From contig JBAZJG010000003.1 of NCBI GenBank assembly GCA_041651455.1, positions 83,793 to 147,792 on the forward strand: 64,000 nt of DNA, read 5' to 3'. Each line of letters begins with the position of its first letter. The first letter of the stretch is position 1. Position numbers and translations under genes: made by a program. The notes beneath the pieces are model-generated. The model worked only from the letters and a program-made list of their open reading frames with translations, did not search any database and was not told the origin of the DNA. Below are positions 6,201-51,906 of this stretch, piece by piece. This DNA is from Candidatus Omnitrophota bacterium (lineage in GTDB: Bacteria > Omnitrophota > Gorgyraeia > Pluralincolimonadales > Pluralincolimonadaceae).

Positions 6201-6926
6201 GCCTTAGGAGGCGTAGTGCCTGACGATACGTATGACGACAGCTACCTGCTGTTTTCCGCGAAAGGCACCAGCAGTATCTGGGATTTTAAGAACGGGGATG
6301 TCAGGGAAGGAGATGTCGACGGTTCGTTCAGGGGCGTATACCTTGCGCCGGAGCACTGGGACAGCGAGACGGAGCGCTACACGGCTATGAATATAGGCCG
6401 CGTCGAAGGCGATATCTCAGGCTTCTATGAAGCGGGCGTAGATACGACCATCCAGGCCGCGTTCGTCGGCGAATGGGTAGACCTCGCCGAGCTTGACACA
6501 AGCATGATCGGATTCGATAATGTCGTGCTTGCGGAGATGGTAAGCGTCCCGATCACCGAAACCTATTCGGCCCTGCTTCAGGGTAACGGAGCGTTCGGCG
6601 CCGCGGGCGCGATCACCGGTAATATGGACATAAGCTTCTACGCGCAGAACGCACTCGACCTGAACGGAATATGGGCGGCGCTCTTCAACGGAAGCTATTC
6701 AGGATACACCGGCGGAAACGACTGGAACATAAACTACAGCAACGATGCCGGCGTTAACGCGACGTTGACAGGAACGCAGTGGAGCGAAGGCCAGTGGATG
6801 GCCAACGTTTCAGGGACCGCTCCCGGTGACGTCAACTTCAACGGACAGGCCGGCGGCACCTACACGGGCACCGAAACGGGCACGTTCGAAGGCGCAGGCG
6901 CCGGAACCTGGAATACCGGAAATTGA
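243..6926 (+). CDS. Giant secreted protein (2227 aa) with an N-terminal signal peptide and two tandem FecR-like domains. A long acidic Gly/Tyr/Asp/Asn/Trp-rich body is made of degenerate ~300–400 aa repeat modules.
   Basis: AAGGAG RBS about 8 nt upstream of the ATG. Signal peptide MKDRNIKIIALAALIIFGSSAAFASG. FecR-like blocks (…TPNAKGSVKGTDVVVV…, …KTPNAVACVRGTVLF…). Recurring YIDP[SD]G.AG and [DY]WGI[WYF] motifs. Confidence 0.85.
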   Translation: MKDRNIKIIALAALIIFGSSAAFASGIGTITSLEGSVDLFKAGSESPSAAALGSEIETGDSVRTKSASKAEITFADKSVVRLAEKTKLDISDYRTGDDGKRINAVLNVERGKIRAIISKSAAKDSFTINTPNAKGSVKGTDVVVVFQKSSTAVAVLNGRYSLSNPASPEKKVEIKGGEVSVVAADNEPSSPRLMLASEKKSHEADTSVSRSAVASSDNTDNLPVAEGYSQAGEMKAVIIKLAGNVRIKSKDSKTWHDAKLNETVRTGDSIETKANGKAEFKIENGNIITLQQNSNVTISRLSRDGKGEYENLFESTGGKIRAQVEKLKGNSKFEVKTPNAVACVRGTVLFLNILPNLTNAYFEEGNGVLRSIISGTTQNVPMGTGSTVDGNGNISNPLPPSDDQKSGWHEGWEFGGEAEGYSGPEGYTGGGTGDNENPDNGANNVFSDKPFTDIIGPGEGGDTGDGGGDGTVVAPVTMNGTIEGDFGYEGVSENNFFSLALSSTTPLGEQWSGTISVNATGTYDNPYYRVFIGNVEGKGVNGGVFYGWSGGVMHSWDTVVSSIYIDPSGMAGNLFGVLSGSNTVNEMDGYYWGDMAGNGDLYVIPMAQLEPDVEYGTVEGWGYGNLNFAFDNGNGYVETGFDRQMAKIEGQDWGIWREAHYGGYSNPNGLTNWSAVAGGDYNDGYFFSLAEGTDNLNGAVRFDISGSYLDSSHLGAYYGTILAHAGEGIEGTGAGGFVEQELSSSTELFNCAYSPYRYEYEYGDYDYDGYGGFDHAGHIGGLAGTVGDLWGEGGFYLVSIGEMEEDEAGSLNDFVWMTDFSSDDNGDEDIREYDGEGQEGAYYGLSSVTGKDGVMKGSARILYIDPDGYAGVKSGKVEGAYSSLAGAYMFDGDFDNDLNITPVIAGISAEDLSESIWSEESDGRLEGDYSGEGFIGGQDELYTASIVDYKNHTSYDWGIYSQRLTGEYELPAVTNGIFSAKMGGNDSFGCYNPGLSVNGQYQLNDGGYYYYQYNDNNSYGYTSEYHYVDNTQQYSNTNYYDDGSTHTYSYSYDNNGNLLGGTSGYGTWDTSVPLAELIGSAPEDASYLSYEDSYVTAENDYGYWIADVNGQGEGWFNGSLNGVFLTGTRMGTISGDIDGTYYDDGTWMGSGSGTWNGKRLAFSGYWGENESSLYTDDPEGYISWAGEERGLMGSTEEDWWDNKSFTARAIGGFWYDYDDGVPKLWNTEIESNNVEKNNNTTLDGGAYYGFTTGIWKNGLMSDGRVIAIFAAPDGRVGIMRGGAEGGYYEGIDLWQASMDLSTEMVEGYSYTPEGLRNDINEEYIGDMGVGGSFAGNGTIYGNIDEAYSYSLPDMPWGIFNVKMGGWFEKDDGNIAENGLALGKNEEGYGERLLITARNVVYDDNTISADVAGAFIDLEEGMIGRINGDLRGTATDQYYYDGGEYYNYTSWAGAAIGEWKKEPLAYSGIMMDGAFGYVEDYYGGFDVDYGYMDGVFGGSGNIWQGPADLTIIGGFWNPDYNEDRVPDYKLWASDFYIITDDNAVAYGTMGGTSLDNRLKGLLLSLYIRETDEGNRAGYIMSVDDAGNYDYFNGDFYPSIGMYGAEGKLAYFLDMPTDYDPTVLLSGSGEALDSDDIYGVVGGDIEGTLDGETLGFVDQDWGIWRAASSGVFNNPPENTWSAVMGDVEDDYDGFYSTYTLAFIDGTSWEDGGFSADIAGRVLSNRSLTTFNGKMLGAYDTEYNEWEALSLGVAQSEYLTLSGSSSGGIGYYGEGFINDGITYGNMGSTVQEWWANGPFDVVAMGEYEGYLDRGSYIVGSKVNSFNGYDGSNTTDDGEGAFWGWTVGTSRNGRLPNMYTAALFISPGEDGNQAGILRGSMNGNTFAMPNEYLDYGDDMEVGLWQADGTLTPTVMMNYIPMGAADFVDSIEIDSDAFTACGKGVINGNPLEAQISQASIANIEAYDTWGIVNGIMFAQSNAVVTDGVWQTALGGVVPDDTYDDSYLLFSAKGTSSIWDFKNGDVREGDVDGSFRGVYLAPEHWDSETERYTAMNIGRVEGDISGFYEAGVDTTIQAAFVGEWVDLAELDTSMIGFDNVVLAEMVSVPITETYSALLQGNGAFGAAGAITGNMDISFYAQNALDLNGIWAALFNGSYSGYTGGNDWNINYSNDAGVNATLTGTQWSEGQWMANVSGTAPGDVNFNGQAGGTYTGTETGTFEGAGAGTWNTGN

Positions 6927-33926: not shown

Positions 33927-35318
33927 ATGAAGAAGTTTTTATTGGTAATAGGTTTGGTGATTGCAGCTATATGTATATATATCCTTAGCATCATATTCGC
34001 GCCGGTACCTTCACTCGATAGCTCTTTAAGTAAATTGAAGGCGCAAGGAATACCTACTACGCTTGAGGAATTAATACCTTTCGAACTTCCTGATTCCGAG
34101 AACGGCGCATTGATATACAAAGAAGCTTTTAGAATATTAGATACTTTTGAGCAAAAATACAGTGTTGGCGAAAAGCATTCCAGGAAATACAAGGATGACT
34201 GGAAATATCTGATAGGCAGAGAAGAATATTTGAATGCCCCTGCAGATAAGAAAAAGGAGATAGGTCAAATAGTTATGAACGATCCTGACCTTAATAAAAT
34301 ATATAGCCTTGTTAATAAAGCGAGCCGAATGAAATGCCAATTCCATAAGAGAGCCGAATATAAAAAAGGATTCGTAATGGAAACGGGGGAATTCGGCCAG
34401 GCCAGAAATTGCGCGAGATTATTGTCGGTGAAAGCCTGCATCGAATCTGAACTAAAATTACACGATGAAGCAGTGAATAGTTCTTCCCTGATATTGAGAA
34501 TTTCTTCTTCTTTTGAAAATGAACCCAGTATAATTGCTCAACTTGTAAGGGAAGCAATATGTCTTATTGGTTTAGATACATTAAGAAGTAATGATGCTGT
34601 TTTCGATGCAAAAGATGCTATCAACGAAAATTGTCTCGATGTATTATCAAAAACGAATAATAGAAGCGCCGTGGAAAACGGTTTTAAAGGTGAACCTATT
34701 TTGGCATATTATACATGCGCCGACCTTCTGAATAACAGCAAGGCTAATCAATTCGATTCGCTCAAGGCTATTGGAATTCTCGCGGAAAAGCCATCATTAT
34801 ACTCAATCCATTTTTATCTTTTGGGCTGTTTTAATCCTAGAAAGCTAATAAACGAACAAATGATATATTATTTTGACGAAATGTCTAAAGCATACGTTGT
34901 CCTGAAAATGCCTTATCATGAAGGTAGTATAATATTGAAGGACTTGATTGATAAAATGGCATCTGGGCGCGGCAAAGAAATGATTCTTGTAAATTTAATA
35001 TATCCTGGAGTCGATAGATACTATACAAGAAGTGAGGAAATAGGCGCCTATATCGATATTGCTTCCTTAGGCGTCGCTAATAGGTTGTATAAGTCAAAAC
35101 ACGGCAGATTTGCCGATTCTCTTGGCCAATTGTCGCCCGGAATATTACCATCGGTCCCTAAAGACCCGTTCTCGGGAAATGATTACGTATACAAAAAAGA
35201 AGGGGACGGTTTCATCATCTACAGCCTCGGAAAGAACATGAAGGATGATAACGGCAAATTCGAGAAAATGGGCACGAAAGGCGATTTTGATATTTCGTGG
35301 CGGGACTCAGGTAAATAA
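33927..35318 (+). CDS. Low-GC hypothetical membrane-anchored protein with a pseudopilin (GspG)-like C-terminal tail but no prepilin leader.
   Basis: Single N-terminal TM helix (MKKFLLVIGLVIAAICIYILSIIFA) without the G/F-T-L-x-E prepilin motif. C-terminus …PKDPFSGNDYVYKKEGDGFIIYSLGKNMKDDNGKFEKMGTKGDFDISW matches the T2SS major pseudopilin C-terminal pattern. GC is visibly lower than in the neighbours. Confidence 0.6.
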   Translation: MKKFLLVIGLVIAAICIYILSIIFAPVPSLDSSLSKLKAQGIPTTLEELIPFELPDSENGALIYKEAFRILDTFEQKYSVGEKHSRKYKDDWKYLIGREEYLNAPADKKKEIGQIVMNDPDLNKIYSLVNKASRMKCQFHKRAEYKKGFVMETGEFGQARNCARLLSVKACIESELKLHDEAVNSSSLILRISSSFENEPSIIAQLVREAICLIGLDTLRSNDAVFDAKDAINENCLDVLSKTNNRSAVENGFKGEPILAYYTCADLLNNSKANQFDSLKAIGILAEKPSLYSIHFYLLGCFNPRKLINEQMIYYFDEMSKAYVVLKMPYHEGSIILKDLIDKMASGRGKEMILVNLIYPGVDRYYTRSEEIGAYIDIASLGVANRLYKSKHGRFADSLGQLSPGILPSVPKDPFSGNDYVYKKEGDGFIIYSLGKNMKDDNGKFEKMGTKGDFDISWRDSGK

Positions 35319-36040: not shown

Positions 36041-36766
36041 ATGCTTTTAACCGCGGACATCGGAAACACGAGCACCGCTTTCGGGATATTTAAGGGCAAA
36101 AAACTCATCAGGTCATGGAAGGTCTCGACAGGCCATGTCGTATCCGGCAAGCCGATCAAATTGCCTGATGGTATCGGGCGAGTGATAATATCCAGCGTCG
36201 TCCCGAAAGCGACGCCTATCGTCAATAGGGCGATATCCCGAAAATACGGGACCAAACCTCTTATCCTCGGGAAGAATATCAAAGCGCCGATAAAAAATCT
36301 CTACAAGAAGCCGAAACAGGTGGGGCAGGACCGTCTCGTTGATGCATTCGCTGTAAAAGAGCTTTACGGTTATCCCGCGATAGTCGTAGATTTCGGGACC
36401 GCGATAACGTTCGACGTCATATCCAAAAAGGGCGAGTACCTCGGCGGACTGATATTCCCCGGGATAGAGACATCCCTTAACGCGCTTTCGGAAAAGGCCG
36501 CATTACTTCCTAAGATAACTGTCGTGCCGCCGAAGGGATTGATCGGACGCGACACCGCCGACAGCATGAGAAGCGGCGTCTTCCATGGCATCGGGGCCCT
36601 ATGCGACGGCGTCATCTCACGTTTAAGGGAGAAGCTCGGCCCAATGACCGTAATAGCAACAGGCGGCCACGCGAAGGTCATCTCGAAATTCACAGGTTCG
36701 ATCCGTAATGTCGATATCTGTTTGACATTGAAGGGGCTTAACCTGATCGCTGGGAGGTATAAATGA
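36041..36766 (+). CDS. coaX: Type III pantothenate kinase.
   Basis: MLLTADIGNTSTAFGIF (ASKHA phosphate-1 DxGNT), …VDFGTAIT… and …IATGG…. The true start is M7 of the track ORF, with a GAAGGGA RBS. Confidence 0.85.
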   Translation: MLLTADIGNTSTAFGIFKGKKLIRSWKVSTGHVVSGKPIKLPDGIGRVIISSVVPKATPIVNRAISRKYGTKPLILGKNIKAPIKNLYKKPKQVGQDRLVDAFAVKELYGYPAIVVDFGTAITFDVISKKGEYLGGLIFPGIETSLNALSEKAALLPKITVVPPKGLIGRDTADSMRSGVFHGIGALCDGVISRLREKLGPMTVIATGGHAKVISKFTGSIRNVDICLTLKGLNLIAGRYK

Positions 36767-37326
36767 ATTCCGGAAAGATGCCGGCATTGTTATTTATCTA
36801 TATGCTTATTATGTGGGCCGTAAGCATCAGTTTATTGCTTGTTTCGTTCTTAAACGGATTCAGGCCGGCGGATTTCAAGCCATTATCTTTTCTATTGATG
36901 CCCGTATTGGTATTAACCATACTCTTAGGGATAATCTATGATATCGCTGTGCTTATATTGCATCTGTTCAATAAGCGGACTCCGGAATATCCGCTTGCCG
37001 TGTTCTTCCCGTTTATCCTCATCATTCTAGTTTTCACCATGCCAATATTAAATTACTTCGGACAGGAGACAGCAATATCATTTGCGGGCAGGAAGGCGCT
37101 TATAAATGACGCCGATAAATTAATGTCAAATGCGGGTAGAGATATTGTAGAACTTCCGGAAAAAGAATACCCGGACAGCTTCAGGAGATTAGGTGCTTTT
37201 CGCGTCTTTTTCAACGATTCATCGGTCGAATTAACACTTGATGGGTGGGTATCAAAGAAGTACGGCATAACTATATCTTCGAGTAATAAAGGCCCCGAAC
37301 GTATATCCAGGTTCGAACGTAATTAA
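36763..37326 (+). CDS. Hypothetical small membrane protein (low GC).
   Basis: Three predicted TM segments in the first 100 aa and no recognisable domain. ATGA-coupled to the coaX stop. AT-rich codon usage. Confidence 0.5.
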   Translation: MNSGKMPALLFIYMLIMWAVSISLLLVSFLNGFRPADFKPLSFLLMPVLVLTILLGIIYDIAVLILHLFNKRTPEYPLAVFFPFILIILVFTMPILNYFGQETAISFAGRKALINDADKLMSNAGRDIVELPEKEYPDSFRRLGAFRVFFNDSSVELTLDGWVSKKYGITISSSNKGPERISRFERN

Positions 37327-37423: not shown

Positions 37424-39366
<1,943 letters not shown>

Positions 39367-39390
39367 ACCCAAATCCAAGGAGGAAAATAA

Positions 39391-39678
39391 ATGAACCTTA
39401 AGCCATTAGGCGACAAAGTGATCGTGGAAGTATTGAGCGCCGAAGAGAAGACAAAGGGCGGCATCATACTCCCGGACACCGCGAAGGAGAAACCGCAGGA
39501 AGCGAAGGTCATAGCCGTCGGATCGGGCAAGGTGCTCGATAACGGCAAGACGGTCGCTCCCGATGTGAAGGCCGGAGACATAGTCATTTTCGGGAAATAT
39601 TCCGGAAGCGAGGTCAAGGTCGAAGAAAAAGAGTACTTAATTATAGACTCGGATGACATCTTGGCAATAGTTAAATAA
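39391..39678 (+). CDS. groES: Co-chaperonin GroES (copy 2, divergent paralogue downstream of groEL).
   Basis: 95 aa, about 60 % identical to copy 1 ([13 protein letters not shown]…[25 protein letters not shown]…). AAGGAGG RBS. Confidence 0.9.
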
Positions 39679-39689
39679 TAAGTACTTTT

Positions 39690-39741
39690 AACACAATAGT
39701 GCCCCTTGGCTCCGCGGTCAGGGGGCATTTTACTTTGTGTT
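39690..39741 (+). terminator. Imperfect GC-cored hairpin followed by a T-rich tract; candidate intrinsic terminator of the groESL-groES operon.
   Basis: Arms aacacaa…gtgcccc and gggggca…ttgtgtt enclose a 15-nt loop, then ttttactttgtgtt. It marks the boundary to the low-GC island. Confidence 0.35.
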
Positions 39742-39856
39742 AATCAAAGTGAATAGTGGCATAAATTTCGTTAAGGATGTGTAGATAACTAAGAGCATGA
39801 ATCTGCATATTATATGTTGCGATGAAAGAAAAACCAAGCAATAACCTGGAGTACTC

Positions 39857-41887
39857 GTGAATAAGATAGACCTACATATACACACAATTCCTACAGTGAG
39901 CGACTCCCCCTTCAGCTTCAAACTCGCCACATTACGGAGATACGTCGTTGAAGCAGCTTTGGATGCCATTGCCATAACGAACCACAATGTATTTGACCGC
40001 AGTCAGTTCACAGCAATTGACAACGAACTGGATGTTGTTGTCTTCCCCGGGATAGAAGTTACCCTCGACTGCGGGCACATTCTCATAATCAGTGACATAG
40101 CCAAGCTGAACCAGTTCGAGAAACAGGCTCAGCAACTTCACAGCCGCATTACCCAAGCTCATGACAGCATCACTATTGATGAGCTTACAAAAATCTTCCA
40201 TAATTTAGAGGAGTACCTGGTCATTCCACATTATGATAAGAAACCAGCAATCAAAGACGATGCTCTGAAACGCATGGCGAAATACGTATCGGCTGGTGAG
40301 GTGGATAGCGCCAAGAAATTCATCCGTGCAATCAAGGACGACGCAAAAGTTACACCGGTCCTTTTCAGCGACATTCGAATCGGCGATACACTCGATAACA
40401 TTCCTACTAGACAGACCTTTGTTGACTGCGGCGAGGTTACGTTGGCTGCCCTCAAGAAATGCCTGCAAGACAAAGGGAAGGTTGCCCTGTCTGAAGCCCA
40501 TGGGAATAGCCTTTTCCAGATTTTTGACGACGGCCAGAAGTTATCTACAGGACTCAACATCCTTCTAGGTGAGAGATCGTCAGGGAAAACATACACCCTA
40601 GATAAAATCAATGCATCGCATGACCAAGTAAAATACATCAAACAGTTCTCGTTGGTGCAACAAGATGAAGTCGCGTGTGAACGCGAATTCAGCCGAGATC
40701 TCCAGAGAACCAGGAGCCAATTTATCGAAGAATACCTATCAAGGTTCAAGATTGTTCTAAATGATGTTATGAATGTCGACCTGTATTCTGATGATCGAGA
40801 AGTTGACAATTACATCCTTAATCTTCATGAGGCTGCGGAGGAAGCAGACAGGAGAGACGCCTTCTCAAATTGCGCACTATTTGATGAATCGGAGTTTTCG
40901 ATTAGCGATGATAAGGTACTGATTGAGTTGATAGCATCAATTAGGCAGATAATACAGAATGTTGAATACCAACCAATCATTAATAAATATGTGGACCGTC
41001 AGTCGCTCAAGCAGCTTGCAGTAGAACTAATTGAATTGCTCTGGGCAAGAGGACGTGAATGGAAGAAGAAGACTATAGTAAACGAGATGGTACTTGAGAT
41101 TCGGCAGGCGCTGAAGAGACGCACGTCTACGGTTCAGGTTCCCGACGTAAATCTCTACCGCGTGAGCTTAAACAAAAAAAAGGTTGAAACATTCTCCGAG
41201 ATTGTAAAATGTCTCCAAGAACATGCAGTAATCTCAGAGGAACCTATCCAGAGGTTCCGGGTTATTGCGACAAAGGATCCCTTCGCGGGAGCAGGCGAGA
41301 TTAAATCTATAAGTGGGGTAAAGACGACATTCCGTGAATCGTTTGCGGAATACGCACACCCCTATAAGTATCTACAGGCGTTGCTATCCAATGATGATTT
41401 GACTCGCTCAGAAATATACAAGTATTTTGTGAAGATAACCTACAGTATTCTAAACCCGGATGGATTCGAAGTATCTGGTGGTGAGCGATCAGAGTTTAGG
41501 CTACTTCAAGCGATCAAGGATGCACAAAACTATGACATTCTACTGGTCGATGAACCAGAGTCCTCCTTCGACAACCTATTTCTCCGGAGCGATGTCAACA
41601 AAATCATCAAAGAGATTTCGGAGACGATGCCAGTAGTTGTGGTTACTCACAACAGCACTGTGGGTGCGTCGGTTGGTGCCGATTATCTCCTGTATGCAAG
41701 GAAGGAGATAGAGGAAGGCAAAGTAGTCTACAGATTGTACTCTGGCTATCCAACGGACCTAACTCTTCACTCCCTCGACGGCAAAGCGATCAGCAACTAT
41801 CAGATCACAATGAATTCACTTGAGGCGGGCTGCGAAGCCTACGATAACAGGAGGAATGGATATGAAGCTATTAGAGATAAGGGATAA
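39857..41887 (+). CDS. Fusion protein with an N-terminal PHP-family phosphoesterase domain and a C-terminal ABC/SMC-type (OLD/AAA_15-21-like) ATPase; candidate defence nuclease-ATPase.
   Basis: PHP His motifs (IDLHIHT, AITNHN, IPHYD) in the first ~200 aa. Walker A LLGERSSGKTY, ABC signature-like SGGERSE, Walker B ILLVDEPESSFD, and H-loop VVVTHN. GTG start. Markedly lower GC and AT-rich third codon positions. Confidence 0.8.
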   Translation: MNKIDLHIHTIPTVSDSPFSFKLATLRRYVVEAALDAIAITNHNVFDRSQFTAIDNELDVVVFPGIEVTLDCGHILIISDIAKLNQFEKQAQQLHSRITQAHDSITIDELTKIFHNLEEYLVIPHYDKKPAIKDDALKRMAKYVSAGEVDSAKKFIRAIKDDAKVTPVLFSDIRIGDTLDNIPTRQTFVDCGEVTLAALKKCLQDKGKVALSEAHGNSLFQIFDDGQKLSTGLNILLGERSSGKTYTLDKINASHDQVKYIKQFSLVQQDEVACEREFSRDLQRTRSQFIEEYLSRFKIVLNDVMNVDLYSDDREVDNYILNLHEAAEEADRRDAFSNCALFDESEFSISDDKVLIELIASIRQIIQNVEYQPIINKYVDRQSLKQLAVELIELLWARGREWKKKTIVNEMVLEIRQALKRRTSTVQVPDVNLYRVSLNKKKVETFSEIVKCLQEHAVISEEPIQRFRVIATKDPFAGAGEIKSISGVKTTFRESFAEYAHPYKYLQALLSNDDLTRSEIYKYFVKITYSILNPDGFEVSGGERSEFRLLQAIKDAQNYDILLVDEPESSFDNLFLRSDVNKIIKEISETMPVVVVTHNSTVGASVGADYLLYARKEIEEGKVVYRLYSGYPTDLTLHSLDGKAISNYQITMNSLEAGCEAYDNRRNGYEAIRDKG

Positions 41888-42155
41888 TCTTGGATATTAT
41901 CTTGATGCCAACAACGCATTCGTTCTAATTGACAAGATCACCAAGGAAGATCTTCTCAGGCTGGTAGACCAGACGCTTAACAAAGATGTTGAGTTTGACG
42001 AGTACAACGATGAGGCCGTCAAGAATCAAGCTCATCAGATTCTCTATAAAAGTATATTTGAGAAGTTACAGGACTTGAAAGTGCGCAGAAAAGAGTTCAC
42101 TGATGAGTCCAAACGACTATATTTGCAGGAGCACGAGTGGTATCGAAAGAAATAG
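41862..42155 (+). CDS. Small acidic helical protein (~97 aa) translationally coupled to the PHP-ATPase gene. Function unknown.
   Basis: AGGAGG RBS lies inside the 3' end of the upstream gene, 7 nt before the ATG at 41862. It overlaps the upstream stop by about 26 nt. The track ORF starts at an upstream TTG at 41820. No recognisable domain. Same low-GC composition. Confidence 0.55.
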   Translation: MKLLEIRDNLGYYLDANNAFVLIDKITKEDLLRLVDQTLNKDVEFDEYNDEAVKNQAHQILYKSIFEKLQDLKVRRKEFTDESKRLYLQEHEWYRKK

Positions 42156-42238
42156 TCACAGAAAGGAACGGAAGGCGATGCGATAAGCTACGCGCCTTAG
42201 CACCTGCGTTGGCGACCCTTCTAAATATGGGGATTTCC

Positions 42239-42267
42239 TTGACTTTTTAACCCGGTTTTTGTATCAT
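42239..42267 (+). promoter_or_regulatory. Sigma-70-type promoter upstream of the IMPDH-like/guaA pair.
   Basis: TTGACT, a 17-nt spacer, then TATCAT, about 30 nt upstream of the AAGGAGG RBS of the 42299 gene. Confidence 0.4.
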
Positions 42268-42298
42268 AATTGTCTAAATTCAAGGAGGTTCCGGAAAC

Positions 42299-43459
42299 AT
42301 GGGTGAATATATAGGTATCGGAAGGAAGGCCCGCCGTTGCTACGGTTTTGATGAGATCGCGCTTGCCCCGGGAAGAGTCACGATAAACCCCGCAGAAGTA
42401 GATACAAGCTGGAAAATAGACGGAAAGAAATTCAATGTGCCCATACTTGCCGCCGCCATGGACGGCGTCGTTGACGTCAAGTTCGCGATAGCGATGGGAA
42501 AGGTCGGAGGCGTGGCGGTGCTCAACCTCGAAGGCGTCCAGACCAGATATGAGGACCCGGACGAGGTCCTCGAGCAGCTTGTCAGGGCCGACCCCGAGAA
42601 GGCCACCGAGATAATCCAGTCGATATACACGAAACCCATACAGGAAAAGCTCGTAGAGAAGAGGATCCGCCAGATAAAAGATGCCGACGTACCCGCGGTA
42701 GTCAGCGCGATACCGCAGCGCGCGGAGAGGTTCGGCAAGATAGCGCAGGACGCAGGCGCGGACATCTTCGTCATACAATCCACGGTCAGCACCGTTAAGC
42801 ATCTTTCTAAGGAATACAAGGCCCTCGACATAAAGAAATTCTGCAAGTCGGTCAAGATACCCGTCATCGTAGGCAATTGCGTCGGATATGATGTCGCGAT
42901 GGACCTCATGAACAGCGGAGCGTCCGCGATACTCGTAGGCATCGGCCCCGGCGCCGCATGTACGACAAGAGGCGTACTCGGCATCGGCGTACCGCAGGTC
43001 ACCGCGACGGTCGACTGCGCGGCAGCACGCGACGTGTTCTTCAAGAAGACAAAGAAATATATCCCTATCATAACGGACGGCGGAATGAGGGCCGGCGGCG
43101 ACATCTGCAAGGCGTTCGCCTGCGGCTCGGATGCCGTAATGGTAGGTTCGGCATTCGCGAGGGCGGTGGAAGCGCCCGGCCGCGGTTACCACTGGGGGAT
43201 GGCCACGCCCCATGCGAACCTCCCGCGCGGTACAAGGATACATGTAGGCACTACCGGGACGCTCGAGGAGATACTCTTCGGGCCCGCCAGGTTCGACGAC
43301 GGCTCGCAGAACCTCATGGGCGCGCTGCAGACATCTATGGGTTCGGTCGGCGCAAAGGACATCAAGGAATTCCAGAAGACAGAGATCATAATAGCTCCGT
43401 CCATAAGGACCGAGGGAAAGATATTCCAGCAGGTCCAAAGAGTGGGAATGGGCAAATAA
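42299..43459 (+). CDS. guaB: IMP dehydrogenase family protein lacking the CBS/Bateman subdomain (GuaB3-like short form).
   Basis: Catalytic Cys loop [11 protein letters not shown], phosphate-binding …[25 protein letters not shown]…, and N-terminal …[11 protein letters not shown]…. Only a ~60 aa linker where the CBS pair would be. Immediately upstream of guaA. Confidence 0.7.
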
Positions 43460-43463
43460 AATA

Positions 43464-45008
43464 ATGTTGCAGCAAGAAGTTGTGCTTGTCCTGGACTTCG
43501 GCTCGCAGTATAACCAGCTGATAGCTCGCCGTGTTAGGGAGAACAGGGTGTTCTCAAAGATCGTCCCTCACAATATCACGGCGGCTGAGATACGCAGGCT
43601 GGCGCCTAAAGGCATCATACTTTCGGGCGGGCCGGCCTCGATCTACGGAAGCAAATCGCCAAAACCAAAGAAAGAGATCTTCGAGCTCGGTATACCTGTG
43701 CTCGGAATATGTTACGGCATGCAGGCTATGTCGTATATGCTCGGCGGCAAGGTGACCAGGGCTAATAAGCGCGAATACGGCCACGCCGAACTGCTTATAG
43801 ACGATTCCTCGGGCCTCTTTTCCGATGTTGAAGATAAGTCCATCTGCTGGATGAGCCACGGCGATTACGTATCGCAGCTGCCTCCCGGTTTCAAAAAGAT
43901 AGCGCACACATCAAATACAGAATTCGCCTCCATCGCCGATACCGAGCGCGGGCTATACGGGGTCCAATTCCATCCGGAGGTCGCCCACACGCCTAAAGGC
44001 GGCAAGATGATATCAAATTTTCTTTTCAAGATATGCCGTTGTGAAGGCAAATGGACCGCGCAATCATTCATCGAGGACACGGTCCGCGCCATAAGGGACA
44101 CTGTAGGAAAAGAAAGGGTCGTATGCGGCCTCTCGGGCGGGGTGGACTCATCCGTGGCAGCCGTATTGCTCCACAAGGCAATAGGCAAACAGCTCATATG
44201 CATATTCATAAATAACGGCGTGCTGAGGAAAGGCGAGGCGGAACGCGTAATCAAGACGTTCAAGAAGCATTTCCACATGAACCTCAGGTACGTAAACGCC
44301 GAAGCAAGGTTCCTCAGGAAGCTCAAAGGTGTCGCCGACCCGGAGAAGAAGCGAAAGATAATAGGGCATGAGTTCATACGCGTCTTCGAAGAGGAAGCAA
44401 AAAAACTCGGAAAGATAGCGTTCCTTGCGCAAGGGACGCTTTATCCGGATGTAATAGAATCGAAGTCCGCGTTCGGCGGGCCGTCCGCGACCATAAAATC
44501 GCACCATAATGTGGGCGGATTACCGCTGAAGATGAAGCTCAAGTTGGTCGAACCGCTGCGCGAGCTTTTCAAAGATGAAGTCAGGATAGTGGGCAAGGCG
44601 ATGGGTCTCTCTGACGAGATAACCCTGCGCCAGCCGTTCCCCGGGCCGGGGCTCGCGATAAGGGTCATCGGCGACATAACCAAGGAACGTCTCGACATAT
44701 TAAGGGAGTCGGACGTTGCGGTTATAGAAGAGATCAAGAAGGCCGGATTTTACAGGGAGGTCTGGCAATCGTTCGCGGTGCTGCTGCCGATAAAGACCGT
44801 CGGCGTCATGGGCGACGAAAGGACATATGAGAACGTCATAGCGCTGCGCGCAGTCACGAGCGCGGACGGCATGACGGCCGACTGGGCGAAGCTTCCATAC
44901 GACCTTTTGGGCAAGATCTCTAACAGGATAATCAACGAGGTTAGGGGCGTCAACAGGGTAGTATACGACATAAGCTCCAAACCTCCTTCCACCATAGAGT
45001 GGGAATAG
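43464..45008 (+). CDS. guaA: GMP synthase (glutamine-hydrolysing).
   Basis: Class-I GATase (…GICYGMQ… Cys, His…Glu), the ATP-PPase P-loop SGGVDSSV, and C-terminal dimerisation domain. 514 aa. Confidence 0.95.
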
Positions 45009-45044
45009 ATCTAGTTACGGGTTTCAGGTTGGGGGATATTAATT

Positions 45045-48000
45045 ATGCAGCATTCGCATTTTGTCCACCTGCATGTCCATACGCAATTCAGCCTTCTTGA
45101 CGGTGCCTGCAAGATACCGGAAGTCATAGCGCTCGCGAAAGAATACAGGATGCCTGCGGTAGCACTTACCGACCACGGCAACATGTTCGGCGCGATAGAA
45201 TTCTATATCGAGGCGATGAAGAACGGCATAAAGCCGATCATCGGATGCGAGATATACGTCGCCCCGGGCTCCCGGCTGGACAAGTCCGCCTCCGTAAACG
45301 AGGAATCAGCATACCACCTTATCCTGCTGTCGAAGGACGAGGAGGGTTACAGGAACCTGATGAAGCTCGTCTCCGCCGGATACCTTGAAGGATTCTATTA
45401 CAAGCCGCGCGTTGACAAGGAACTCCTGGCCAGGTATTCAAAAGGACTGATCGCGCAGTCGGCGTGCCTGCAGGGAGAGATACCATACCTTATCGTTAAA
45501 GGAAAATACGAAGAGGCAAAGGTCGTCGCGGGCCAATATAAGGACATATTCGGGCCGGGCAATTTCTATCTCGAGCTCCAGAAAAACCTCATACCGGAGC
45601 AGGAAACGGCGAACGCCGGACTGCTGAAGATCTCAAAGGAGCTCGACATACCGCTTGTTGCCACCGGCGACGTGCATTACCTGCGCAAGAGGTCCTCGCG
45701 CGCCCACGAAGGCCTGCTCTGCATACAGACCCAGACGACACTGAGCGACCCGGACCATATGAGGTTCTCTACCGATGAGTTCTATTTCAAGTCGTCGGAG
45801 GAGTTCAAGGAGCTCTTTTCGGACGTCCCGCAGGCGATATCCAATACAATAGAGATCGCTGAGAAATGCAACCTGGAGCTTGATTTCAACAAGACGCACC
45901 TGCCGCAGTTCACCCCGCCAGAAGGCAAATCCCGCGAGGAGTACCTTAAGGACCTTGTAGAAGAAGGGATGAAGAAACGTTACGCGCAGGTCGACAAAAT
46001 CATACGCGACAGGGTGGACCACGAGCTGAATATCATCAGGAAGACCGGGTTCACGAGCTATTTCCTTATCGCGTGGGATTTCATCAATTACGCCAAGTCC
46101 AAAGGAATACCCGTCGGCCCCGGAAGGGGATCCGCCGCAGGCAGCGTAGTCAGCTACTCGCTCGGCATTACCGACCTCGATCCGATAAAGTATGACCTGA
46201 TATTCGAGCGGTTCCTTAATCCCGACCGCGTAAGCCTTCCCGATATCGACATAGATTTCTGTTACGAGAGAAGGGGCGAGGTCATAGATTATGTGACCCA
46301 GAAATATTCCAAGGAGAACGTCGCCCAGGTCATTACGTTCGGCACCATGAAAGCGCGCGCGGTCATTAGGGACGTCGGTCGCGTCATGGGCATAAGCTAC
46401 GGCGATGTCGACCGCATCGCGAAGCTCGTGCCCGAAGAGCTCGGCATCACCCTCGAAAAAGCGCTGAAGGTGGAGCCGGAGCTCCGCAACATGTACAAGA
46501 GCGACCCCCAGATGAGGCAGCTCATTGACATCTCTACCGAACTCGAGGGCCTTAACCGCCACGCATCGACCCATGCGGCCGGCGTCGTAATATCCGACCT
46601 TCCGCTCACCGACTATGTCCCTCTGTTCAAAACGAGCGAGGGCCAGCTTTCAACCGGCTACGAAATGAAGTCGCTCGAGAAGATCGGCCTGCTGAAGATG
46701 GACTTTCTCGGCCTCAGAACCCTCACAGTCATCGATGAGACCGTCAAGATCATAAAAAGGACGAAGGGCCTTGCGCTGGACATAAACAATATACCGCTCG
46801 ATGACAAGAAAACCTACGACCTGCTGTCCAACTCGGAATCCCTCGGTATATTCCAGCTTGAAAGTTCGGGCATGCGCGACATACTCCGCAAACTTAAGCC
46901 GACGACGTTCGAGGATATCATAGCCATATTGGCACTTTACCGCCCGGGCCCGATAGGCAGCGGCATGGTCGAGGACTTCATCAAGAGGAAGCACGGCGAG
47001 ATACCCATCAAGTACGACCACAGGATGCTCGAGCCGATACTGAAGGAAACCTACGGGACCATAATCTACCAGGAGCAGGTCATGCGCATCGCCTCGTCGC
47101 TTGCGGGGTTCTCGATGTCACAGGCCGATTCGCTCAGGCGCGCTATGGGAAAGAAGATCCCGGAGGAGATGGAGCAGGCGCGCTCGAACTTCCTGAACGG
47201 CGCTTCCAAGAACGGGATAGACAAGCGCACGGCCGAGAAGATATTCAATCTCATAGAATATTTCGCCGGATACGGTTTCAACAAATCACACTCGACCGCA
47301 TACGCGCTCATATCATACAGGACGGCTTACCTGAAAGCGAATTATCCCGTAGAGTTCATGAGCGCACTGATGACGTCTGAGCGCGATAATATAGATAAAG
47401 TCGCGTTCTATATAGAAGAATCCCAGAGGATGTCGATCCAGATACTGCCGCCGAGCATAAACGAAAGCTTCTCGAAGTTCACGGTAGTTGGCAATTCGAT
47501 CAGGTTCGGGCTCAGCGCGGTCAAGAACGTCGGCCAGGGCGCGATAGATTCGATCGTCAACGCGAGGGGCGCGTCCGGCAAGTTCAAGAATCTTTATGAC
47601 TTCTGCGAACGCGTAGACCTCAGGCTCGCGAACAGGAAGGTGCTGGAAAGCCTGATAAAGTGCGGCGCATTCGACGAATTCGCCCTGCACAGGTCGCAGC
47701 TTACGGTCATGCTGGACGACTGCCTTGAGTGCGGCGCGAACTCGCACAGGGAGCGCGCAAGCGGTCAATCGACGTTCTTCGAGGAGTTCGGCACGCATTC
47801 TAAGGCTCATGCTTCGCACAGGCACGAGACCCCCAAGATACCGGAATGGCCAGAAAGCCAGCTGCTCGCCTATGAAAAGGAGATGCTCGGTTTCTATGTG
47901 ACCGGCCATCCGCTGGCGAGATACGAGAAGCTTATTCGCTCTTATTCCACATGTTCGGTCAAGGACCTCGCCAAGAGAAGGTCGGATGAAGAGATCAATC

Positions 48001-48488
48001 TCGGCGGCATCATCTCGAAGCTGAAATTCACGATCACGAAAGCCAAAAGCGAGAAGATGGCGATCATGAGCATAGAGGATCTTACAGGCGAGGTGGAAGT
48101 CCTTGTATTCCCGAAGGCGTTCGCGAATACCGAGAGATACATAAAGAAAGACGCCATCGTATGCGTTAAGGGCAAGATCAACCTCAGGGAGGACAGGCCT
48201 AAGATAATGGCCAACGACATAATCCCCCTCGACGAGATACAGAAGAAATATACCCAGGCGATAATCATCAGCCTCGACGCGGGCATAGGGGAGGATTCCA
48301 TGAACAGGCTCAAGTCGGTCCTTGAATCCCATCCGGGGACTGCTCCGGTGTACCTGCATTTCAAGATGGCCGACGGGAAGAGGTTCGAGATATCAGTCGA
48401 AGACAAATTGAAGGTTGAACCCTCCGACAGCCTGACATCCGATATAGAGAAGCTTCTGGGCGACGGCGTGGTAACATTCAAGACTTGA
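45045..48488 (+). CDS. dnaE: DNA polymerase III alpha subunit.
   Basis: N-terminal PHP domain (HLHVHTQFSLLDGA), palm/fingers motifs, OB fold and C-terminal domain. 1147 aa. Confidence 0.95.
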   Translation: MQHSHFVHLHVHTQFSLLDGACKIPEVIALAKEYRMPAVALTDHGNMFGAIEFYIEAMKNGIKPIIGCEIYVAPGSRLDKSASVNEESAYHLILLSKDEEGYRNLMKLVSAGYLEGFYYKPRVDKELLARYSKGLIAQSACLQGEIPYLIVKGKYEEAKVVAGQYKDIFGPGNFYLELQKNLIPEQETANAGLLKISKELDIPLVATGDVHYLRKRSSRAHEGLLCIQTQTTLSDPDHMRFSTDEFYFKSSEEFKELFSDVPQAISNTIEIAEKCNLELDFNKTHLPQFTPPEGKSREEYLKDLVEEGMKKRYAQVDKIIRDRVDHELNIIRKTGFTSYFLIAWDFINYAKSKGIPVGPGRGSAAGSVVSYSLGITDLDPIKYDLIFERFLNPDRVSLPDIDIDFCYERRGEVIDYVTQKYSKENVAQVITFGTMKARAVIRDVGRVMGISYGDVDRIAKLVPEELGITLEKALKVEPELRNMYKSDPQMRQLIDISTELEGLNRHASTHAAGVVISDLPLTDYVPLFKTSEGQLSTGYEMKSLEKIGLLKMDFLGLRTLTVIDETVKIIKRTKGLALDINNIPLDDKKTYDLLSNSESLGIFQLESSGMRDILRKLKPTTFEDIIAILALYRPGPIGSGMVEDFIKRKHGEIPIKYDHRMLEPILKETYGTIIYQEQVMRIASSLAGFSMSQADSLRRAMGKKIPEEMEQARSNFLNGASKNGIDKRTAEKIFNLIEYFAGYGFNKSHSTAYALISYRTAYLKANYPVEFMSALMTSERDNIDKVAFYIEESQRMSIQILPPSINESFSKFTVVGNSIRFGLSAVKNVGQGAIDSIVNARGASGKFKNLYDFCERVDLRLANRKVLESLIKCGAFDEFALHRSQLTVMLDDCLECGANSHRERASGQSTFFEEFGTHSKAHASHRHETPKIPEWPESQLLAYEKEMLGFYVTGHPLARYEKLIRSYSTCSVKDLAKRRSDEEINLGGIISKLKFTITKAKSEKMAIMSIEDLTGEVEVLVFPKAFANTERYIKKDAIVCVKGKINLREDRPKIMANDIIPLDEIQKKYTQAIIISLDAGIGEDSMNRLKSVLESHPGTAPVYLHFKMADGKRFEISVEDKLKVEPSDSLTSDIEKLLGDGVVTFKT

Positions 48489-48514
48489 CAAAGTGCCGTA
48501 TTACTAACTATAAT
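48485..48514 (+). promoter_or_regulatory. Near-consensus sigma-70 promoter for the HU gene.
   Basis: TTGACA (overlapping the dnaE stop), an 18-nt spacer, then TATAAT. A second TATAAT lies at ~48543. AAGGAGG RBS before the ATG at 48564. Confidence 0.45.
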
Positions 48515-48563
48515 AGTAATAACAATTTACGGATACTAAGCTATAATTCCAAGGAGGCCGTAT

Positions 48564-48836
48564 ATGACAAAGAAAGAGATCGTCCTGCAGATAGCCAATG
48601 AGACCGGCTTGAAACAGGTGGACGTTAAGCTGATCGTGCAGCGCACGCTCGACATGATCGTCGAGGCGCTCGCGAACAACGAGACGGTGGAACTGAGGAA
48701 TTTCGGGATTTTTAAGGTCAAATCGAGGCGAGGCCGCACCGGAAGGAACCCGCGTACCGGCGTCACCGTCCCCGTCCCGCCGAAGAAGGTGGCGGTATTC
48801 AAGCCGGGGCTTATCATGAAACAGAAAGTAAGATAG
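48564..48836 (+). CDS. hup: HU/IHF-family nucleoid-associated DNA-binding protein.
   Basis: 90 aa. MTKKEIV…, DNA-binding arm RNFGIFKVKSRRGRTGRNPRTG. Confidence 0.8.
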   Translation: MTKKEIVLQIANETGLKQVDVKLIVQRTLDMIVEALANNETVELRNFGIFKVKSRRGRTGRNPRTGVTVPVPPKKVAVFKPGLIMKQKVR

Positions 48837-48864
48837 CCGGCCTCAACCCGCCGAATATCCCATT

Positions 48865-50133
48865 ATGAGAGAACAAGTTAAGGCATTGCGGGGGACGAAA
48901 GACCTCCTGCTTACGGAAGCAAAATTATGGACGACCCTTGAGGCAAAAGCCAGGGCCGTCTTAAATGCTTTTTGCTATAGGGAAATACGCACGCCCGTTA
49001 TCGAGGAATCCTCGCTTTTCGTGCGGTCGCTTGGCGCGGGAACGGATATAGTCGAAAAACAGATGTTCACGTTTATAGACCGCGGTGAAAGGTCCATCAC
49101 CCTTCGCCCGGAAGCGACCGCCTCGGTCGTCAGGGCTTACCTCGAGAACAACCTCGTCAACGAATACGGGTTCATAAAATTATTTTATATGGGCCCGATG
49201 TTCCGGGCGGAAAGGCCTCAGGCCGGCAGGATGAGGCAGTTCCACCAGATAGGGGTCGAAGCGCTCGGTTCCTACAGCCCGCAGCTGGATGCCGAGGTTA
49301 TTGCGCTGATGTCCGCGCTGCTGGAATCGCTCGGGGTGCACGGATCCACAATCAAGATAAACTCCCTCGGGTGCCCCAAGGACAAGATAGCCCTAGCCGA
49401 CGGGTTGCGTAATACGCTCTCCGGAGGCCAGGACAGGCTCTGCGAGGATTGCAAGGTCCGTTATGAAAAGAATATCCTGCGCATCCTCGACTGCAAGAAC
49501 GAATCATGCAGGAAATTGGTCAGAATGATATTCAAGGGGACGCCGGAGTGCCTCTGCCCCGACTGCAAATCGCATTTTGACAGCGTAAAGAGCTCGCTGG
49601 ACGGCCTTAAGGTCAACTACACAGTCGACCCTTACCTTGTGAGGGGCCTCGACTATTATACAAAGACCACCTTCGAGGTTACGCACAAGAAACTCGGCGC
49701 GCAGGATGCGATAGGCGCCGGAGGCAGGTATGACAACCTTGTCGAGGAGCTTGGAGGCCCCGCAAAGGGAGCCTGCGGTTTCGCTATCGGCATGGAAAGG
49801 ACGGTCATGGCTATGGACGATGCCCCCGGGACCCCGGACGGCATTTGCCTGTATTTCGCCACGATGGGTGAGGAGGAATACCGCGTCGCGTTCAATTTCG
49901 CGAACGAATTGAGGACAACGGGCGGTATCTCCTGCGAACTCGATTACGAAGGAAGGTCCCTTAAAGCCCAGATGCGCTCGGCCGACAGGCTCGGCGCCAA
50001 GTATGTGGCGATAATAGGCGAGGAAGAACTGAAGAACCGCACGCTTACATTACGTAACATGACGACGAAGGAGCAGAAGGTGCTGCCGGAGCGCGAATTC
50101 ATACCGGAAATAGAAAGGATCTTCGTAAAATAG
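48865..50133 (+). CDS. hisS: Histidine–tRNA ligase.
   Basis: Class II motifs (…FRAERPQAGRMRQFHQ…, …GGGRYD…) and C-terminal anticodon-binding domain. 422 aa. Confidence 0.9.
   Translation: MREQVKALRGTKDLLLTEAKLWTTLEAKARAVLNAFCYREIRTPVIEESSLFVRSLGAGTDIVEKQMFTFIDRGERSITLRPEATASVVRAYLENNLVNEYGFIKLFYMGPMFRAERPQAGRMRQFHQIGVEALGSYSPQLDAEVIALMSALLESLGVHGSTIKINSLGCPKDKIALADGLRNTLSGGQDRLCEDCKVRYEKNILRILDCKNESCRKLVRMIFKGTPECLCPDCKSHFDSVKSSLDGLKVNYTVDPYLVRGLDYYTKTTFEVTHKKLGAQDAIGAGGRYDNLVEELGGPAKGACGFAIGMERTVMAMDDAPGTPDGICLYFATMGEEEYRVAFNFANELRTTGGISCELDYEGRSLKAQMRSADRLGAKYVAIIGEEELKNRTLTLRNMTTKEQKVLPEREFIPEIERIFVK

Positions 50134-51906
<1,773 letters not shown>

Follow-up and report, generated by a model that had tools for sequence, protein, structure and literature searches.

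A horizontally acquired PDC-M49-type gene pair, encoding a PHP-ABC ATPase fusion and a small partner, downstream of groESL in a Candidatus Omnitrophota genome

A stretch of 64,000 nucleotides from a Candidatus Omnitrophota bacterium (GenBank assembly GCA_041651455.1, contig JBAZJG010000003.1, positions 83,793 to 147,792 of the forward strand; hereafter the window) carries, between a chaperonin operon and an IMPDH-like gene, two overlapping genes that we name A and B. Protein A is a fusion of an N-terminal PHP (polymerase/histidinol-phosphatase) metal-dependent phosphoesterase domain with an ABC ATPase head and, judged from its sequence, almost certainly belongs to PDC-M49A, a family catalogued in PADLOC; protein B is its small companion, PDC-M49B. 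The pair was acquired horizontally and inserted at this place, and the overall explanation that we find best, and regard as probable, is that of a mobile two-gene PDC-M49 defence operon with an ATP-gated PHP nuclease and B as its partner. The architecture is already known: PADLOC lists it as PDC-M49, the larger relative Ppl is a validated defence gene, and NCBI has the exact protein A. A preliminary description of gene A had drawn attention to a domain order inverted relative to OLD and Gabija-type proteins. The PHP domain does precede the ATPase, but the implied novelty does not stand, as Ppl/TrlF proteins have the same order and the arrangement is catalogued as PDC-M49. That description was also incomplete, having missed the two-gene operon with its 97-aa partner, the horizontal insertion and the identical NCBI protein.

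Gene A and its family

Gene A lies on the + strand and encodes 676 aa, and all the motifs quoted for this reading frame in the preliminary description are present in it. The gene and its parts are listed here.

39848..39851, + strand: Shine-Dalgarno sequence GGAG of gene A, 5 nt before the GTG (direct sequence reading)
39857..41887, + strand: gene A (PDC-M49A), PHP-ABC ATPase fusion; 676 aa, GTG start, 77 kDa, pI 5.4
39857..40501, + strand: PHP domain plus linker, residues 1 to ~215; ligands H7, H9, D16, H43, E67, H74, H125 and D172
40502..40651, + strand: ABC ATPase head, N-terminal lobe, residues ~216-265; Walker A G238-ERSSGK244-T, Q-loop Q263
40652..41221, + strand: helical (coiled-coil-like) insertion, residues ~266-455; low-confidence apex at 334-343
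41222..41806, + strand: ABC ATPase head, C-terminal lobe, residues ~456-650; signature S540-G-G, Walker B D565-E566, D-loop D572, H-loop H598
41807..41884, + strand: C-terminal tail, residues ~651-676, LEAGCEAYDNRRNGYEA; resembles the TrlF tail MEGGAEAFEKRKQVYEA

The PADLOC hidden Markov model (HMM) for PDC-M49A, PDLC04680, matches protein A at E=1.9e-292 (969.9 bits), with residues 1-673 aligned to model positions 1-673 of 674. The protein is 100% identical to an NCBI entry named 'MAG: phosphotransferase [Candidatus Omnitrophota bacterium]' (MAG, metagenome-assembled genome). Among the NCBIfam models, the 'TrlF family AAA-like ATPase' (NF045780) is matched at E=5e-19 and 68.5 bits, below its cut-off of 350, a PHP-type CehA/McbA metallohydrolase model matches residues 4-103 (1.3e-8), and both ABC transporter ATPase models and the Spaf_1101 family match the C-terminal part, the former in the C-terminal lobe and the latter at residues 550-671. 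Weak cross-matches to other PADLOC HMMs link protein A to AriA and its homologues to GajA. We found no match of protein A to the PADLOC Ppl model at E<=1, no TOPRIM among its Pfam, PADLOC and NCBIfam matches, and no Metallophos among its Pfam matches. The PDC ('phage defence candidate') systems are 145 in number and were found by Payne et al. embedded in BREX, DISARM or type I restriction-modification (RM) loci (bioRxiv 10.1101/2024.01.29.577857).

A PHP domain followed by a complete ABC ATPase head

We aligned protein A with 50 sequences from its own clade, at 63-86% identity, and 48 from a Firmicutes clade, at ~25%, which makes 99 sequences in all (alignment A1). In the PHP region of this alignment D5, H7, H9, T10, D16, T41-N42-H43, G65, E67, H74, K128 and S171-D172 are invariant. 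Positions 125 and 174 covary by clade, being H125/R174 in the clade of protein A and E125/H174 in the Firmicutes clade, so that each clade keeps ~8/9 of the classical PHP ligand positions, the ligands having been mapped by motif order and not by superposed coordinates. An AlphaFold2 model of protein A built from A1 (mean predicted local distance difference test, pLDDT, 82.3; predicted template modelling score, pTM, 0.65; residues 1-230 mostly >90) contains the PHP barrel fold. Its best fold neighbour is EndoQ (PDB 5zb8), at a sequence identity of 14%, and 7rty, a PsfC-type small-molecule phosphatase, is also a good structural match. The barrel fold, the CehA/McbA match, the EndoQ neighbour and the invariant ligands together bear out the earlier placement of a PHP domain at the N-terminus.

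The six ABC motifs of protein A stand in the canonical order Walker A, Q-loop, signature, Walker B, D-loop and H-loop, and their central residues are invariant in A1: G238, R240, G243 and K244 of Walker A, Q263, S540-G541-G542 of the signature, D565-E566 of Walker B, S570/D572 of the D-loop and T597-H598-N599 of the H-loop, to which E656 and Y669 of the tail can be added. In characterised ABC ATPases an intact signature motif goes with ATP-dependent head-to-head dimerisation. The N-terminal lobe is modelled as strands within 219-238 and a helix at 244-254, and between Walker A and the signature there is an insertion of ~190 residues, modelled with moderate confidence (pLDDT 49-90) as helices 271-333 and 353-453. 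No CxxC zinc hook is found in residues 266-455, which contain isolated Cys only. In a profile search of the PDB the Walker A lobe (profile positions 237-313) matched the Rad50 ATPase N-lobe, and positions 536-608, from signature to H-loop, matched ABCE1 and the nucleotide-binding domains of ABC proteins. The Pfam SMC_N match is weak (E=7e-5, under the gathering threshold), and the other Pfam matches are sub-threshold AAA families; UvrA is also among the ATPase matches. A Foldseek comparison of the model, the check that the preliminary description had proposed, returned as ATPase neighbours JetC, RecN, SMC/cohesin heads with coiled-coil stubs, Rad50 and a retron-IA ATPase. The protein A ATPase is a complete ABC head of the SMC/Rad50-like branch split by a coiled-coil, in agreement with the SMC/RecF/OLD-like head and long helical insertion that had been read from the motifs. 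Both domain assignments, PHP and ABC, are correct well beyond chance.

Relationship to Ppl and TrlF

Ppl is a validated single-gene anti-phage system that combines an ATPase with a PHP domain (Gao et al. 2020, per PMC11482910; bioRxiv 10.1101/2024.10.26.620412); it restricts T7, and Bas63 gp130 counters it (PMC11482910; bioRxiv 10.1101/2024.10.26.620412). TrlF sits with TrlG and TrlR in the Photorhabdus TRL operon for temperature restriction (PMC7554251). Our literature search found no mechanistic paper on Ppl and, under the name 'TrlF', only the Photorhabdus temperature-restriction paper.

For comparison we took bona fide TrlF genes carried by plasmids of Yersinia ruckeri (pYR3), Pantoea and Lactococcus and built from them a three-sequence TrlF alignment (A4). 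An hhalign comparison of A1 with A4 gave 99.8% and E=2.4e-27 over 639 columns (5-682 against 10-881). BLASTP of protein A against the Yersinia TrlF aligned two segments, one from PHP to Walker A (3-251 against 14-308) and one from the signature to the C-terminus (494-675 against 694-873), the latter including the tail, LEAGCEAYDNRRNGYEA against MEGGAEAFEKRKQVYEA. The PHP motifs D-x-H-x-H, T-N-H and G-I-E are common to TrlF and protein A. Ppl/TrlF proteins are collinear with protein A throughout, from PHP, Walker A and coiled-coil to signature/Walker B/H-loop and conserved C-terminal tail, but they measure ~850-950 aa against the 676 aa of protein A, whose coiled-coil is much shorter. The three TrlFs match the PADLOC Ppl model at 3.8e-35, 4.1e-29 and 6.5e-18, and match PDC-M49A models too (e.g. 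1.7e-20).

Since protein A scores below the NF045780 cut-off and leaves the Ppl model unmatched, we treat it as a superfamily relative and not as a member of Ppl/TrlF. On this sequence evidence, PDC-M49A is a compact paralogous family inside the Ppl/TrlF-like superfamily. It is the most compact version (676 aa, a short coiled-coil, a tiny obligate partner), which makes it attractive for biochemistry and cryo-EM on the control of a PHP nuclease by an ABC ATPase.

Gene B and its linkage to gene A

The second gene of the pair begins inside the first.

41849..41854, + strand: Shine-Dalgarno sequence AGGAGG of gene B, within the 3' end of gene A, 7 nt before the ATG (direct reading)
41862..42155, + strand: gene B (PDC-M49B); 97 aa, 11.9 kDa, pI 5.7; overlaps gene A by 26 nt

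Gene B matches the PDC-M49B HMM PDLC04682 of PADLOC at E=2.1e-32, over model positions 1-95 of 97. We set its start at 41862 because the HMM alignment begins at residue 15 of a longer open reading frame (ORF), because AGGAGG precedes this ATG, and because the gene calls in the sister contigs (L006-L009) are of 97 aa. Protein B is 100% identical to an NCBI hypothetical protein from a MAG that also holds a protein identical to A. Its model (pLDDT 90) has three short strands and one helix, followed by a 40-residue C-terminal helix (56-96).

Gene A was followed by an overlapping small gene (94-112 aa) on the same strand in all 13 loci inspected, namely the window, L006-L013, a Rhizobium plasmid (L002), Enterococcus faecalis (L003), Staphylococcus cohnii (L005) and Clostridium (L096). 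The HMM subtypes of the two proteins pair, 04680 with 04682 and 04678 with 04681, and B diverges in step with A, with 34% identity where A has ~40% and 22% where A has 25%. Over deep divergence only M1 and L4 of B are invariant, neither of them polar; within the clade of the window there are 12 invariant positions. Because no residue beyond M1 and L4 is conserved across deep divergence, B is probably not an enzyme, and it looks like a co-evolving, non-enzymatic partner of A.

The Clostridium locus, on plasmid pCF011-89 of Clostridium sp. CF011 (L096, 3995-6422), encodes a distant PDC-M49A-like protein of 706 aa (E=2.5e-37, full length), and the overlapping gene after it, of 107 aa, is matched by no PDC-M49B HMM. 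Since this partner escapes the PDC-M49B HMMs, the architecture of A plus a small partner is wider than the present PADLOC models cover. Directly upstream of A, two distant members have a gene of 66-67 aa (L013, 7739-7942; L010, 7733-7933), HTH_17/excisionase-like in L013; this arrangement recalls TrlR, the small regulator of the TRL operon. The 178-bp region upstream of gene A in the window contains no such small gene.

Insertion of the pair downstream of groESL

Three features define the insertion site.

39698..39729, + strand: intrinsic terminator hairpin of the groES-groEL-groES2 unit; 14-bp stem, T-rich tail, with an equivalent in L014
39740..42230 (approximate), + strand: inserted cassette of ~2.5 kb with genes A and B only, from empty-site comparison, blastn and GC
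42239..42267, + strand: promoter-like site TTGACT-17-TATCAT of the IMPDH-like gene; 10/12 matches, kept in the L014 empty site

Neither A nor B is encoded in any of 80 related metagenome loci fetched via the IMPDH-like protein. The closest relative (L014; groEL 86%, groES2 83% and IMPDH-like gene 83% identical to the window) shows the empty site, in which groES1-groEL-groES2 is followed by 171 bp and the IMPDH-like gene, A and B both being absent. Its intergenic region aligns with the terminator of the window on the left and with the promoter and ribosome-binding site on the right (alignment A3), and blastn homology restarts at window position 42231. Because both flanks align and homology resumes at this point, we place an insertion carrying only A and B at ~39740-42230. 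The GC content of the window is uniform at ~0.54 except at 34-36 kb and in the cassette, where it is 0.41-0.48, against 0.53-0.59 outside. Gene A has GC 0.449 and a GC content at third codon positions (GC3) of 0.498, and gene B 0.398 and 0.510; GC3 is 0.65-0.73 in groEL, groES2, the IMPDH-like gene, guaA and dnaE. In a contig more closely related to the window (L008, A 86% identical) the cassette is found at the same place, with 87.7% nucleotide identity against 84.6% for the flanks. Since this divergence resembles that of the flanks, the cassette has been passed on vertically for some time since its acquisition.

This slot is filled with other cargo in further relatives: an AbiEii protein (Pfam, 1.9e-15) with an HTH_3 protein at GC 0.37 (L037, 2319-3563), an ORF6N/PDC-S05 protein (1.4e-62) with a defence-type dGTPase (2.5e-52; L048, 3094-4882), and proteins of ~430 aa, GAF/HD-GYP-like by eye (L028, 5089-6393; L054, 5467-6759). 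Because relatives carry such different, low-GC cargo, the slot between groESL and the IMPDH-like gene looks like a hotspot for defence or accessory genes in this group of Omnitrophota. The clean empty site and the differing defence cargo thus draw attention to a likely defence hotspot downstream of groESL in Omnitrophota, a phylum that has been little studied.

The chaperonin operon itself (groES-groEL-groES) occupies window positions 37424-39678. Its second GroES (39391-39678, 95 aa) is 55% identical to the first, is found at the same place in L008, L014, L016 and L017, and is absent from many more distant relatives. We considered this second groES as part of the insertion and rejected the idea, given its native-like GC3 of 0.65 and its presence in the empty site of L014. 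On the other side, the IMPDH-like gene (42299-43459) encodes a 386-aa IMPDH/GMP-reductase-domain protein, shorter than a typical IMPDH and possibly without the CBS subdomain, and adjoins guaA in the window and in many related loci that reach far enough downstream. A functional link of the pair to nucleotide metabolism through these two genes was rejected as well, as they abut groESL directly in relatives.

Distribution and neighbourhoods of the family

An exhaustive search of 1.84 billion protein representatives with protein A gave 764 matches at E<=1e-3 and 227 at E<=1e-30, the full-length ones nearly all of 665-692 aa. The named sources are Omnitrophota, candidate division TA06, Waddliaceae, Oceanidesulfovibrio (B), Rhizobium, Phaeobacter, Enterococcus, Staphylococcus, Streptococcus, Lactococcus, Vagococcus and Aerococcus, a patchy distribution over several phyla, and 81 plasmid records contain a match. 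A tblastn search of 50,697 phage records found no homologue, a result that is uninformative on targets either way. A peptide-pattern search of genome contigs with protein A returned one weak and irrelevant match, to an ABC segment (32% identity) from a MAG of Bacilli, the method having missed the family. On the Rhizobium plasmid the A and B genes lie beside IS3, DUF5677, DUF4238 and AbiH, and on E. faecalis plasmids recombinases flank them, with an Abi protein, RelE/ParE and DUF4062 close by.

Possible function and mechanism

We consider it quite likely that A and B serve in conflict or defence. This reading draws on the kinship with Ppl, the intact catalytic motifs, the A-B linkage, the discovery of PDC systems within RM, BREX or DISARM loci, the neighbouring mobile and defence genes on plasmids, the horizontal insertion and the patchy distribution. 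That protein A does so as an ATP-regulated nuclease is a tentative proposal, which could well prove wrong. Under it, protein A would dimerise by sandwiching ATP between the Walker A of one head and the signature of the other, and a cycle of ATP binding and hydrolysis, triggered by foreign DNA or a phage product, would license the PHP site by controlling access of the substrate, allowing it to cut nucleic acid, most likely DNA. DNA is favoured because EndoQ and Pol III/PolX provide precedents for it as a PHP substrate; RNase AM shows that RNA is possible too. Cleavage would halt propagation of the phage or plasmid, possibly at a cost to the host cell. Protein B would most likely bind A, plausibly with its long helix along the coiled-coil or the head of A, and act as a regulator or adaptor. 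The preliminary description had already suggested an ATP-gated PHP nuclease or phosphoesterase, which is a reasonable guess, and the same idea has been put forward for Ppl (PMC11482910).

Several points weigh against the reading of the pair as a defence operon with an ATP-gated nuclease. Regarding the catalytic domain, the Pfam PHP model has no match in protein A at E<=1, so that its PHP identity is drawn from NCBIfam, family conservation and structure; a precomputed PF02811 match is present in some members of the PDC-M49A family. Where the canonical D-x-H motif ends in His, the clade of protein A has Arg (R174), and because of this replacement the metal site may differ from that of classical PHP enzymes. 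PHP enzymes comprise phosphatases, RNases and DNases, and since they vary in this way the fold leaves open the substrate of the PHP domain of protein A. Protein B has no significant fold neighbour in the structure search. Regarding context, the neighbours of the pair in the window, L010, L011 and L013 are housekeeping genes and not a defence island, and conservation within the family is high for a defence gene (63-86% identity over >120 clusters). Regarding the catalogue, the 145 PDC systems, PDC-M49 included, entered PADLOC as untested candidates (bioRxiv 10.1101/2024.01.29.577857). Our literature search did not find the name 'PDC-M49', and the family is unmentioned in the DefensePredictor, lactococcal and S. 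thermophilus papers.

A bolder form of the nuclease proposal, speculative and in our opinion rather unlikely, would make PDC-M49 a minimal, convergent 'Mre11-Rad50-like' machine, in which a homodimeric SMC-like ATPase with its own PHP nuclease, assisted by a kleisin-like or Mre11-HLH-like B, clamps and cuts foreign DNA in an ATP-dependent manner. The 40-residue helix of B would then bind the coiled-coil neck or the head and gate the entry of DNA, and the DNA clamped would be ends or a particular topology. If this were true, no smaller DNA-sensing nuclease of SMC type would be known, and the defence mechanism would differ from that of the ABC systems that use TOPRIM or HNH nucleases.

Among the alternatives to a defence operon, the one that survives best, though we think it improbable, is an addiction module resembling a toxin-antitoxin (TA) pair, with A as a nuclease toxin and B restraining it; the module would stabilise plasmids or islands, and any phage defence would be incidental and abortive-infection-like. 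The frequent occurrence of the family on conjugative and mobilizable plasmids (the 81 plasmid records), the compact operon of two overlapping, translationally coupled genes, a B that is probably not an enzyme and the RelE/ParE and Fst toxin-antitoxin genes among the neighbours are all consistent with such a module. However, the small gene comes after the large one, whereas most type II antitoxins precede, and typical toxins are much simpler than an ABC ATPase of 77 kDa with a coiled-coil. Further, the relative Ppl acts as a single gene without a B-like partner, and the cassette is kept in a chromosome, with flank-like divergence and no obvious mobile element to stabilise.

We see a still smaller chance for a housekeeping machine of DNA repair or end processing, that is, a PHP-based analogue of SbcCD/Mre11-Rad50 acting on hairpins, breaks or damaged bases of host DNA. 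The architecture does parallel that of Rad50 with its metallo-phosphoesterase nuclease, a repair endonuclease (EndoQ) comes first among the fold neighbours, Rad50, RecN and UvrA are among the ATPase matches, and the window copy lies among housekeeping genes, near dnaE. But the pair is dispensable, since L014, with its empty site, and all 80 of the related loci lack it, its composition is foreign, and elsewhere it is plasmid-borne beside Abi and TA genes. The family was catalogued through its embedding in RM, BREX or DISARM loci, its relative Ppl is a defence protein, and protein A has neither a CxxC zinc hook nor a calcineurin-like nuclease.

A metabolic enzyme acting on a small-molecule phosphate ester, as implied by the NCBI and RefSeq product names 'phosphotransferase' and 'histidinol-phosphatase', by the histidinol phosphatases and PsfC-type small-molecule phosphatases of the PHP family (with 7rty as a good match) and by the adjoining purine-nucleotide genes (IMPDH-like, guaA), can practically be dismissed, because the names are generic homology transfer from the PHP domain, the insertion brought the pair next to the purine-nucleotide genes by chance (in the empty site these are contiguous with groESL), no histidine-biosynthesis genes lie nearby in any locus examined, and small-molecule metabolism offers no precedent for a fusion with a coiled-coil ATPase of the SMC/Rad50-like kind. 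The RefSeq names are therefore misleading, and our analysis ties these proteins firmly to the Ppl/TrlF superfamily.

Other features of the window and of a sister contig

Contig L006 is 97.6% identical to window positions 37718-51887, and the synteny stops exactly at the boundary between groES1 and groEL. The upstream block of L006 (1-7865) encodes KTSC, dGTP_diPhyd_N and DZR proteins, PDDEXK_15, a 235-aa ORF containing Cpn10, and a 987-aa, SbcCD-like fusion of Metallophos with SMC_N/AAA_23. Recombination at groES may have brought in this block, which would then be phage- or defence-like, or the assembly may be chimeric. Within the window, a 463-aa ORF (33927-35318) with a hydrophobic N-terminus and GC 0.38, on a background of 0.54, has no Pfam or PADLOC match and is probably a second compositional island, horizontally acquired. 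Directly upstream of groES1, a 187-aa predicted membrane protein (36763-37326, GC 0.41) also lacks a Pfam or PADLOC match. At the start of the window there is an ORF of 2227 aa on the + strand (243-6926).

Comparison with known systems

The nearest defence analogues of protein A are the systems that pair an ABC ATPase with a nuclease, OLD, Gabija, PARIS, Septu, Wadjet and Lamassu, from all of which it differs in having a PHP domain in place of a TOPRIM, HNH or calcineurin-like nuclease. OLD, Gabija GajA and PARIS AriA/AriB resemble it in joining an ABC ATPase to a metal-dependent nuclease in defence. In these the ATPase comes first and the TOPRIM nuclease is either fused or separate, whereas in protein A the PHP domain comes first and TOPRIM is absent. 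For ATP-gated access to a nuclease the best mechanistic analogy is Mre11-Rad50/SbcCD, which shares the SMC-like ABC head, the coiled-coil and a metallo-phosphoesterase; there, however, the nuclease is a separate calcineurin-like (Metallophos) protein and not a fused PHP domain. The coiled-coil of protein A, with ~190 residues and no CxxC hook, is another difference from these complexes, as is its patchy and mobile distribution, theirs being universal. EndoQ shares the PHP fold but is a lesion-specific DNA endonuclease for repair without an ATPase, and recognition of damaged bases is unsupported for protein A. The Ppl/TrlF proteins, which have the same collinear architecture, differ from PDC-M49A in their partners: Ppl is a single gene and TrlF comes with TrlG (AlbA_2 plus HATPase_c_4) and the small regulator TrlR, while PDC-M49A is accompanied by the 97-aa B. 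Finally, compared with the plasmid-borne members of PDC-M49 the copy described here has the same gene order, strand and short overlap, and structurally there is no difference; what sets it apart is its setting, since it is chromosomal and stands alone between housekeeping genes, outside any RM, BREX or DISARM locus.

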